From positions 392,242 through 456,241 of the forward strand of contig CAZALK010000001.1 in NCBI GenBank assembly GCA_964486045.1: a stretch of DNA of 64,000 nt, given 5' to 3'. The notes under the pieces are model-generated. The model was given only the letters and a program-made list of their open reading frames with translations, ran no database searches and was not told the origin of the DNA. The stretch comes from an uncultured archaeon. GTDB lineage: Archaea; Asgardarchaeota; Lokiarchaeia; Sigyniarchaeales; SOKP01. Of the stretch, positions 29,170 to 35,657 are shown in pieces. Both the position numbers and the translations under genes were made by a program. Within the stretch, counting starts at the first letter, position 1. The number at the start of each line of letters is the position of its first letter.

Positions 29170-29243
29170 TGGGCCAGGAGAGACTTGAACTCTCGACCTT
29201 CTCGGTGTAAGCGAGACGTCATACCAGACTAGACCACTGGCCC
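29170..29243 (-). tRNA. tRNA-Val(TAC), no intron
   Basis: Cloverleaf: GGGCCAG/CTGGCCC, anticodon arm TCTCG-CTTACAC-CGAGA, TTCAAGT. Confidence 0.95.
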
Positions 29244-29627
29244 AATTTTGTTTTTTACTTATAAATAGGATAAATTCTAAGTAAAATTAAAATTTTTGGG
29301 TGGAACATAAATAGATACTAAAATCACCTAAAAACTGTTAAATAAATTCATTAATTTGGGATTTAATTGGTAATATATTATGTTAAATCAAATAAAAGTT
29401 CAGGGTGGGATTTTCAAGAAAATGCTAATTGTAGTTTTCATTTTCTTATTTGGGGGCTTATTTCAAATTTGAGTCGACTAATTCAAATCTATGAAAATTA
29501 CCTTCTGATATTGGGAATTAATTTACTAATCAATCCCAGTGCACATTTTTTTAATTCTGGTATTTTAATTTACATACAAATATTATTATAGGTGACGAAA
29601 ACCCAAGCTCAATTCAACTAATGGAGG

Positions 29628-30383
29628 ATGATATTATTGACTACAAAAACTCAATTACAATTAAGAGAGCGCGTGTTGGACATAATGAAGATTAATGATT
29701 CATTTTTAGACGCGTGTTTGCTAATGTTGTTTGAACAACAAACATTTGATGAACGGCAAATAAAAAATAGTGTGCATCGAAACACAATTGGGTTTAACAG
29801 ACCAGACGCCTACCTGCTTTCCGATTATTCTGTTTGGAAGTTAAACTTCCCGGATAGATCAATAAACGGAGAATTAAAAACTACTTTAATTAACAAGCTT
29901 GAAAAGTATACTTTGCAATTATCATCTTACAGAGAAGTTGTAGCCGCATTAGACGGCTTAAAGGATCCAACATCAATTGTCACGCGTGTCAAGAATGAAA
30001 TAGACGTTGATAAATTAGATCCAACCACTTTGCTTAAAGATTATTTAAATTATAAAAAAGTGGAACGAAAAAAAGAATTAAGAGAACGGACTAAAAAGAA
30101 AAATGAAGAAGAACGACACAAAAAGTTAGGGTTAACTCACGACATTATTATGGGGGCCATTGTTGAAATCGAACCAAAAGCTTTAAAGATCAAAACAACC
30201 TTTGAAGATTTCGAGATGGATCTCTGGTTTCCAAAATTTAGCATCATTAAGGGATATAAAGAAGAACTCAATATTTTCCAAGAATTTATGATCAAGAAAA
30301 GAATGTTTTCTTATAAACTCGAAGATGCCCTTGGTAAAAAGATATATCACGATACGCTCCAAACTAATAGATTTAGAAAGTAA
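29628..30383 (+). CDS. Hypothetical protein between two tRNAs
   Basis: 251-aa ORF with GGAGG RBS; QTFDERQ...NTIGFNRPDA motif. Confidence 0.7.
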   Translation: MILLTTKTQLQLRERVLDIMKINDSFLDACLLMLFEQQTFDERQIKNSVHRNTIGFNRPDAYLLSDYSVWKLNFPDRSINGELKTTLINKLEKYTLQLSSYREVVAALDGLKDPTSIVTRVKNEIDVDKLDPTTLLKDYLNYKKVERKKELRERTKKKNEEERHKKLGLTHDIIMGAIVEIEPKALKIKTTFEDFEMDLWFPKFSIIKGYKEELNIFQEFMIKKRMFSYKLEDALGKKIYHDTLQTNRFRK

Positions 30384-30654
30384 ATGGCCTCATCGTCGTC
30401 ATTCGACAAAAAATATTACTCTTGCGAATGATTTTATGGAATTATGAATTGGAATATCGGTTATCTCGTTATAGCGCTAAAAACAGCGTTGAAGAAGATC
30501 ATGACGTGTTACAAGAATTTATCATTTCAACTTCCATGTTAGAAACTAAGAAACAAGATGTGATAAGACTTAAAGATCAAACTCTTCATGCGTATCAACT
30601 TTAGATGATTCTTTAGATTAATATAGAAGATTTGAATATATTGAAATGTATAAG

Positions 30655-30815
30655 CGCCCAGGGTGGGACATTCAAGAATATGCGAAATGCGTTTCTTTTC
30701 GAACCCACGTATCCGTTGGACACTGGATTAGCAATCCAGCGCTCTACCGAGCTAAGCGACTTTCTTTCAGCAATCTAAGGGATTGATGAACTGAGCTTCG
30801 TTTAATTTCCCGAGC
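30655..30815 (-). tRNA. tRNA-Ser(GCT) with T-loop intron (30669-30697) and a 49-nt insertion (30760-30808)
   Basis: GCTCGGG/CCTGGGC acceptor, CTGGA-TTGCTAA-TCCAG, long variable arm, GTGGG/CCCAC T-stem, G73; perfect BHB at 59/60. Confidence 0.8.
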
Positions 30816-30875
30816 ATAAAGTTGTAATTAATTATAACGATTTGAAATTTTAATATTTTATCATAAAATCTGGGT

Positions 30876-31433
30876 TCATGTGGTTCTGTCAAAAATTGAA
30901 TCTTTATTGCTTTTAACTTTATCTAAAAATAATTCGACTTCCTTTAGAGATCTAAGTCTAATAGTTTGTATGTTCGAATAATCACCTGATTCAATTAATG
31001 CTTCATACCTCTTTCTGACCTTTCTATGGGTTTTTATAGTCCAAAGCACAATAGAATCCTTACTAAACAAACTTTTTAACGTCTCTATATTTCCTGTGCC
31101 ATACCAGAGTTCTTCTCTAGTTATGATTCTCTTAATAGCTCTTATGACTGCTTGGTACAATGCACGAATGAAACTTAAATCAAGCCAAATGACCGTATTA
31201 ACACTTTCCCATTTTATGAAAGTGGATCTTGTGTAATTACCATCCAATATCCAATTGTCATCTTTTAAAGCCAAACTCAATTTCGAAAAGAATTCTTCAT
31301 CAGTAGGGTAAGACCAATTCGGTCCCCAAAACAGTGAGTCCATTTCGATATAGGGTATAGATAAAGTACTAGACAATCTCTTGCAAAAGGTTGTCTTACC
31401 GGTTCCACTTGTTCCTACCACATTTATTTTCAC
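30876..31433 (-). CDS. Adenylate-kinase-like P-loop protein (FlaR/topology-modulation family)
   Basis: GTSGTGKTT, DSLFWGPNW, WILDGNY. Confidence 0.85.
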   Translation of the reverse strand: MKINVVGTSGTGKTTFCKRLSSTLSIPYIEMDSLFWGPNWSYPTDEEFFSKLSLALKDDNWILDGNYTRSTFIKWESVNTVIWLDLSFIRALYQAVIRAIKRIITREELWYGTGNIETLKSLFSKDSIVLWTIKTHRKVRKRYEALIESGDYSNIQTIRLRSLKEVELFLDKVKSNKDSIFDRTT

Positions 31434-35555: not shown

Positions 35556-35657
35556 GCAGATGTAGCCTAGCTGGTAAGACGCTGGCCTTGAGTATCTTAT
35601 GCAATCAAGCAAGCCAGTGCGCGGAAGCGCTCGGGGGTTCGAGTCCCTCCATCTGCG
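35556..35657 (+). tRNA. tRNA-Ser(TGA) with canonical 37/38 intron (35593-35611)
   Basis: GCAGATG/CATCTGC, CTGGC/GCCAG, BHB helix CTTG/CAAG, long variable arm, G73. Confidence 0.92.

Follow-up and report, generated by a model that had tools for sequence, protein, structure and literature searches.

A predicted intron at position 6/7 and a spare acceptor strand in the tRNA-Ser(GCT) gene of a Loki-type archaeon

Organization of the tRNA-Ser(GCT) locus

The tRNA-Ser(GCT) gene located on the minus strand of the window, a 64,000-nt stretch of contig CAZALK010000001.1 of an uncultured archaeon, is real and very probably functional, and its acceptor 5' strand is found in two copies, each separated from the body of the tRNA. 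On balance, the reading favoured here is that a working tRNA-Ser(GCT) is produced after protein-mediated splicing of two introns, and that the upstream copy, GCTCGGG, acts in the leader as a surrogate strand which frees the real exon for splicing. Read from 30815 to 30655, the locus comprises GCTCGGG, a 12-nt spacer, GCTCAG, 30 nt and then G-TCGC with the rest of the tRNA (Table 1). Removal of the 30 nt at position 6/7 joins the inner GCTCAG to G7, giving GCTCAGG as in intron-less orthologues. When both introns (30790-30761 and 30697-30669) are removed in silico, ARAGORN calls an 83-nt tRNA-Ser(gct) with a score of 119.6, which is identical to an intron-less orthologue in 74 of 83 positions and exhibits a cloverleaf, the GCT anticodon, a long variable arm and G73. 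The best-supported prediction for the 5' junction, drawn from comparison of sequences, is GCTCAG-GTCGC with A at position 5, and not GCTCGGG-TCGC.

Table 1. Features of the tRNA-Ser(GCT) locus in window coordinates
Feature	Position	Strand	Basis
Putative archaeal TATA box TATTAAAA, preceded by an A-rich BRE-like run	30848..30855	-	sequence; putative function
Outer (spare) acceptor 5' strand GCTCGGG, proposed leader surrogate strand	30809..30815	-	allele comparison and folding
12-nt spacer	30797..30808	-	3' part pairs with tRNA nt 8-14; supplies exon-side helix h of the 6/7 motif
Exon 1, tRNA nt 1-6, GCTCAG; likely true acceptor 5' strand	30791..30796	-	invariant in 15/15 split alleles
30-nt intron at 6/7 (probable), relaxed BHB geometry	30761..30790	-	absent in about 100 family orthologues
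Exon 2, G7 to A59: D arm, anticodon arm, long variable arm, 5' half of T arm	30698..30760	-	sequence; ARAGORN on the in-silico product
Anticodon GCT	30732-30730	-	within exon 2
29-nt intron at 59/60, complete hBHBh' motif	30669..30697	-	sequence; polymorphic among orthologues
Exon 3, U60 to discriminator G73, with acceptor 3' strand CCTGGGC	30655..30668	-	sequence; CCA not encoded

The first-pass annotation of this DNA had described the acceptor strand GCTCGGG at 30815-30809, an interval of 49 nt (30808-30760) and then U8 at 30759, together with the 3' acceptor strand CCTGGGC and a hairpin TCAG..CAATC-CCTTA-GATTG-CTGA, and all of these are correctly placed. Its proposal that GCTCGGG is the sole partner of the 3' strand holds for a contiguous 7-mer, but the inner GCTCAG (30796-30791) together with G30760 also pairs, with one wobble as compared to two for the outer GCTCGGG. 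Both this second acceptor 5' strand inside the 49 nt and the intron at 59/60 were absent from that annotation. The latter exhibits a central helix TTCG/TGAA, an intron-side helix h' AGAA/TTCT and the T stem as h, as read from the sequence, and is present in some orthologues and absent in others. The inserted feature within the acceptor strand is real, but probably is not an intron of 49 nt: the unusual position was rightly recognized, given the contiguous GCTCAGG-TCGC in intron-less orthologues and the finding of this as the sole Ser(GCT) gene, while the boundaries are shifted to 30 nt at 6/7.

The host genome (5.18 Mb, 31% G+C, 99% complete, 7.8% contamination, 45 contigs) belongs to a group in which records matching the gene are mostly labelled Promethearchaeota, that is Loki-type Asgard archaea. 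A search of its 45 contigs, which do not form a closed genome, by anticodon-arm scan and pattern, BLAST, Rfam and nhmmer (with a profile built from 31 orthologues) revealed neither a second Ser(GCT) gene nor a joined 5' junction, and the other hits correspond to Ser(GGA), Ser(TGA), Ser(CGA) and other tRNAs. Neither ARAGORN nor Rfam at its gathering score calls the gene in the window; below this threshold Rfam scores only a 35-nt fragment and relaxed ARAGORN settings return only noise. Since ARAGORN misses the gene and Rfam detects it only below threshold, such genomes appear to be without a tRNA for AGY codons, which make up 30% of Ser codons and 20 per 1000 codons overall.

Distribution and conservation of the split acceptor strand

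Orthologues were sought with an anticodon-arm pattern in 135 genomes of the family, and the gene was found in 117. Among these, nine contain the split acceptor strand, seven in this genus and two in another, and the same layout is found in 13 of 14 metagenome hits. The acceptor strand was scored as contiguous at 101 family loci, 19 of which carry GCTCAGG directly before U8, and it is contiguous in the Ser(GCT) genes of all 15 genomes from other families of the order. Comparison of orthologous loci, which the first-pass annotation had suggested as a check, shows that the insert is real and polymorphic. Misassembly, which it had named as a possible source of error, is contradicted, as is chance, by the occurrence of the same layout in 15 distinct split alleles (from genomes and metagenomes) of independent assemblies.

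In the consensus of these 15 alleles, 10-12 nt that end in GA (AA in two) separate an outer GCT[C/T][A/G]GG from GCTCAG, and G7 follows after another 26-35 nt. The inner GCTCAG and G7 are invariant in all 15, with variation in the first intron base and the last two, as these are bulge bases that may vary. GCTCAGG also forms the acceptor 5' strand in 19 of the 21 genes that have this stem type and lack the intron. Four alleles have G5 in the outer copy and one has T4; these changes retain wobble pairs with the 3' strand, and neither is seen among the 21 intron-less stems. The invariance of inner GCTCAG and G7, set against these wobble-keeping outer changes, points to the inner copy as the exon and to the outer copy as a pairing partner only, although the context of the latter in the leader, AT or TT at -2/-1, is typical of intron-less genes. 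A spare 7-mer with 7/7 pairing is found in 15/15 split alleles and in 0/20 intron-less genes with the same 3' strand, in whose leaders the best match reaches 4-5 of 7 pairs; the 15 alleles probably descend from one cassette, in which case this co-occurrence of intron and spare strand does not constitute independent evidence. Among the alleles recovered, no split form with a different acceptor sequence, usable for co-variation, was found.

Assignment of the splice junction

Every junction able to yield the mature sequence was scored in the 15 alleles, and the inner 6/7 junction is the only one tested that gives a correct tRNA with in-register helices on both sides. Its central helix has 4/4 pairs in four alleles, 3/4 in eight and 2/4 in three (mean 3.07/4), with C2-G and U3-A/G kept in all. 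The exon-side helix h consists of 2 bp, formed by the leader GA at -2/-1 with U8 and C9, in 13 of the 15, and an intron-side helix h' of at least 2 bp directly follows the 3-nt bulge in 11. Deeper stems of the intron differ in sequence and retain pairing (CAATC/GATTG, ATCAACC/GGTTGAT, TCATTAGC/GCTAATGA). Summed over alleles, the 6/7 register scores 81 as compared to a mean of 29.6 and a maximum of 51 in 2000 sets of shuffled introns, a contrast that is overstated by the kinship of the alleles and implies no probability.

The allele in the window is among the weakest of the 15. The first-pass annotation could build no clear BHB here, and this holds even from the inner exon, where GCTC/AAGA gives 2/4 pairs, so that the canonical 4-bp central helix is lacking in this allele. 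The 6/7 junction nevertheless has both 3-nt bulges and, in register with them, the flanking helices: h' has 3 bp (TCA/TGA) followed by 5 bp (CAATC/GATTG), and h, with its AA leader, has 1 bp and becomes longer if shifted by 1 nt. Such geometry is ordinary though relaxed, and the suggested non-canonical mode of removal, in the sense of new chemistry, is not required. From the outer copy, no BHB can be built in this allele at 6/7 (central helix 2/4, flanking helix on neither side) or at 7/8 (2/4, no intron-side helix), as had been noted at the outset. Across the alleles the outer 6/7 junction never has h or an h' of at least 2 bp (0/15 for each), and the outer 7/8 junction has a mean central helix of 1.2/4. 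Removals from outer to inner copy at 1/2, 2/3, 3/4, 4/5 and 6/7 reach 1.9-2.2/4 with h' nearly absent. Shifting the register by one at each end gives good pairing (3.3/4) but a tRNA that is 2 nt short, while use of the TCAG/CTGA hairpin as the central helix, which is not conserved in orthologues, gives wrong ends. The intron is likely the 30 nt at 6/7 measured from the inner exon.

A different assignment, regarded as unlikely, takes the outer GCTCGG as the true exon and has the 49 nt removed in two stages to give a mature tRNA with G5. A short intron would be cut at the hairpin between outer GCTC and inner GAGC, after outer G6 and inner C4, and in stage two AG plus the 30 nt would be cut at a loose motif before G7; in a variant, two motifs would receive one cut each and RtcB would join the outer exon to G7. 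The GCTC/GAGC helix has 4/4 pairs in 13 of 15 alleles with a flanking helix of 1-4 bp, which makes a formally good hBH, and 5' and 3' sites can be separate hBH and HBh' entities (PMC4090602). The outer copy is moreover the thermodynamically preferred partner of nt 66-72 both before and after splicing, and its 5' end would mature first under the order of events in Methanopyrus, where tRNA ends are trimmed before intron removal (PMC3695527). However, the hairpin is an automatic by-product of the GA at -2/-1, which generates the palindromic GAGCTC, and it forms in the precursor at p 0.01 or less. A cut at the hairpin alone leaves a product 2 nt too long, and stage two has no adjacent flanking helix. 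Such a route does not explain why the inner TCAG is invariant and lies exactly 3 nt from h', and in this allele it gives a stem with two G-U pairs and a G5 not seen in intron-less stems of this type.

The distance from the promoter bears on the same choice. From the TATA-like element, which is kept upstream of Ser(GCT) genes across the family, it is 40 nt downstream to the outer copy and 59 nt to the inner G1, and the mode of the promoter-to-G1 distance in intron-less genes is 58-60 nt. This modal distance is occupied by the inner copy in one allele group and by the outer copy in another, the latter amounting to about half of the alleles and being in favour of the outer exon. As the distance divides by allele group, it does not separate the models.

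Folding of the precursor and the role of the upstream copy

When the precursors are folded, the partner of nt 66-72 is the outer copy in all 15 alleles (p 0.98-1.00) and the inner copy in none. When the outer copy is scrambled, the inner exon pairs with nt 66-72 at a mean p of 0.47 (0.62 in this allele). The first test of splice-motif formation showed no average gain, with central-helix pairing of 0.31 in the presence of the outer copy vs 0.28 without it. In a second test, devised after the first came out flat and employing forced central pairs and open bulges, the outer copy cheapens the BHB state by 1.4 kcal/mol on average and by 1.5 here, with a gain in 12 of 15 alleles and a loss in none. 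The duplex of the spacer with nt 8-14 has a mean energy of -2.6 kcal/mol as compared to -1.7 for shuffled sequences and -0.6 for intron-less leaders, and is weak in each single allele. After in-silico splicing, the outer copy still outcompetes the inner one by 0.7-5.9 kcal/mol (3.2 here), with secondary structure only taken into account.

These results also bear on whether the outer copy has a role at all. It is quite improbable that the 6/7 intron is real with the inner exon and the outer copy a functionless relic of duplication or recombination, to be trimmed off by RNase P. The neutral outcome of one folding test, the probable single origin of the cassette and the fact that the outer copy does gather changes are in line with such a relic, but its 7/7 pairing is kept in 15/15 alleles in spite of heavy divergence and length variation in the spacer, the leader upstream and the intron. 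An intron without a spare copy was not found either, though the search patterns could have returned such alleles.

Very improbable is an arrangement in which introns at 5/6 and 6/7 flank a micro-exon of a single base (inner G6), with the 5' strand made of outer nt 1-5, the inner G and G7: the 5/6 register has 3/4 central pairs in 15/15 alleles and the right product length, but h' is found in no allele, the mismatch at -1 is constant, C4-G pairing shifts the helix to the +2 register, and 3/4 alone is near chance. That the gene is a decayed or unspliced pseudogene, or one part of a split tRNA whose remainder lies at another locus, as the first-pass annotation had considered, is highly unlikely: the 2/4 central helix of this allele, found also in two kin alleles, and the chance of an unassembled copy in a contaminated assembly of 45 contigs, are outweighed by the lack of another gene or joined junction in the genome, by the intact arms, G73, promoter-like element and BHB of the second intron, and by kin genomes that keep the same layout. 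For a trans-spliced tRNA in particular, the pieces are all found, in the right order, in 161 nt downstream of a single promoter-like element, and no second piece was found in the genome; the 5' to 3' order equally rejects a permuted gene.

Proposed maturation pathway and the splicing machinery

With the 30-nt intron at 6/7 and the inner copy as the exon, the splice motif needs nt 1-4 paired with the intron and nt 8-9 paired with the leader, which makes the real acceptor stem impossible in the precursor. In the pathway proposed here, the upstream GCTCGGG would pair with nt 66-72 and form a surrogate acceptor stem, as computed from the sequence at hand. A side arm made of the spacer, the inner GCTC and the intron would then present a relaxed BHB, whose geometry is deduced from allele comparison. 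An (alpha-beta)2 EndA would cut after G6 and before G7, and RtcB, also encoded in the genome, would ligate the exons. Once the D arm and the elbow fold, the inner GCTCAGG may take over nt 66-72, this being the weakest step, and RNase P would finally remove the leader including the spare copy. The mature tRNA would begin with GCTCAGG and contain A5-U68.

Since the outer copy wins even after splicing, this hand-over would need the tertiary fold and an irreversible cut by RNase P, as expected from general tRNA biology. The tertiary fold is possible only with inner pairing, because nt 8-14 stay open to the spacer when the outer copy is paired. If ends are trimmed first as in Methanopyrus, the surrogate stem could allow early 3'-end maturation, and RNase P would then cut twice.

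The genome encodes RtcB ligase, RNase P RNA and two EndA subunits, one with the catalytic His and K59 and the other beta-like without the His. K59 of the alpha subunit aligns with K44 of Aeropyrum EndA (3p1z_B), the CSL lysine, a residue of the L1/CSL loop linked to cleavage of relaxed motifs and a mark of broad-specificity EndA (PMC5829648). By this alignment, the host EndA is predicted to be of the broad-specificity alpha-beta type with the CSL lysine.

Recombination and turnover at the locus

The distribution of the split form was followed on a FastTree phylogeny of two adjacent genes from 81 genomes, whose root is unreliable and in which G027 (split) is missing for lack of an EndA hit. Five changes are required: one for the clade with this genome, and the others for G010, G005, G112 and G121, which stand among neighbours without the intron. 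G005 (split) and G097 (contiguous) have a common upstream flank up to the promoter-like element, after which the whole leader differs, and the same is observed for G121 (split) as compared to G120 and G126, which have a different stem type. This suggests that recombination replaced a cassette of leader plus tRNA, instead of the intron simply being lost, allowing for possible binning errors, and cassette replacement would give the 15 alleles probably one origin. Within the host genome, a search for relatives of the 30-nt intron gave four matches at 8 mismatches vs 0-2 for shuffles. It is put forward tentatively, with chances a little short of even, that the 6/7 intron is tolerated by virtue of its own folding aid, consisting of the spare acceptor strand and the complement of nt 8-14, and that allele replacement behind a conserved promoter carries the cassette from one Loki-type archaeon to another, across two genera.

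Variation at this gene extends beyond the split form. Two unrelated acceptor stems of Ser(GCT), GCTCAGG/CCTGAGC and GCAATCG/CGATTGC, are both found in two genera and alternate between sister genomes, with 17 changes on the two-gene tree (loci L009-L026 and L095-L187), which suggests frequent allele replacement. Many orthologues (L153-L187 and others, in genera g28, g29 and g22) have a different intron of about 19-25 nt at the junction of the D arm and the anticodon arm, and 29-30-nt introns of several sequences at 59/60. Two Ser(GCT) genes (L158, L159) lie 9.8 kb apart on one contig (G128 C211) with near-identical promoters, and possibly bracket an integrated element.

The surroundings of the gene differ as well. 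tRNA-Val(TAC) lies within 60 nt after Ser(GCT) in 58 relatives, and here 1.4 kb separates the two (window 29243-30655). A 251-aa ORF without a Pfam match is located in between (29628-30383, plus strand) and is found beside the gene elsewhere only in G028, with 70% identity. A 185-aa P-loop kinase-like ORF (Pfam AAA_18; 30876-31433, minus strand) lies directly upstream of the tRNA promoter and was present at no other fetched locus. The flanks of this gene turn over quickly.

Other tRNA genes were observed alongside. A tRNA-Ser(TGA) with an anticodon-loop intron (window 35556-35657, plus strand), just upstream of tRNA-Lys(CTT), was missed by ARAGORN in the window and wrongly called Ala in intron mode, and Ser(CGA) at C7:160178-160282 of the host genome was miscalled Arg. 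A tRNA-Sec(TCA) gene is found at C15:137830-137917 of that genome, as expected in Loki-type archaea.

Comparison with known systems

Judged by its absence from orthologues, its geometry and the enzymes encoded, the insert would behave like the non-canonical BHB introns that tRNA genes of TACK and Asgard archaea contain. With the non-canonical, relaxed-BHB introns of Thermoproteales (classes of Marck and Grosjean 2003, via PMC4090602) it has in common the short hairpin form of the intron, a 4-nt central helix flanked by 3-nt bulges, multiple introns within a gene and an (alpha-beta)2 EndA with the L1/CSL loop; it differs in the 2/4 central helix of this allele and in that both the exon-side helix and the surrogate strand come from the leader. 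The most extreme acceptor-stem position in that review is 3/4, in Thermoproteales, and 6/7 is not among the positions it gives (PMC4090602).

Split and permuted tRNAs of Nanoarchaeum, Caldivirga, Thermofilum and Cyanidioschyzon (PMC3218864, PMC4090602) likewise use flanking transcript, as leaders or trailers, to build the splice motif. However, there the flanks pair with each other and form the intron-side helix, whereas here a cis leader would replace an exon strand in a gene that is neither split nor permuted. In the literature searched, no description of a spare acceptor strand in a tRNA leader was found.

A 2026 Asgard preprint mentions a few acceptor-stem sequences without detail. Its introns occur in the same phylum-level group and are likewise multiple, non-canonical, missed by annotators and gained recently in a patchy manner; what differs here is that sister genomes exhibit the whole leader-plus-intron stretch swapped behind a common promoter. 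Such a swap bears on how Asgard tRNA introns arrive, which the preprint leaves open, and cassette replacement, if true, would be a concrete route of arrival. If the favoured reading is true, the range of tRNA introns includes a position at which splice motif and acceptor stem are mutually exclusive, and a leader RNA element resolves this conflict. As the spare and the real copy differ at base 5 in this allele, A or G at base 5 of the mature tRNA tells the models apart.
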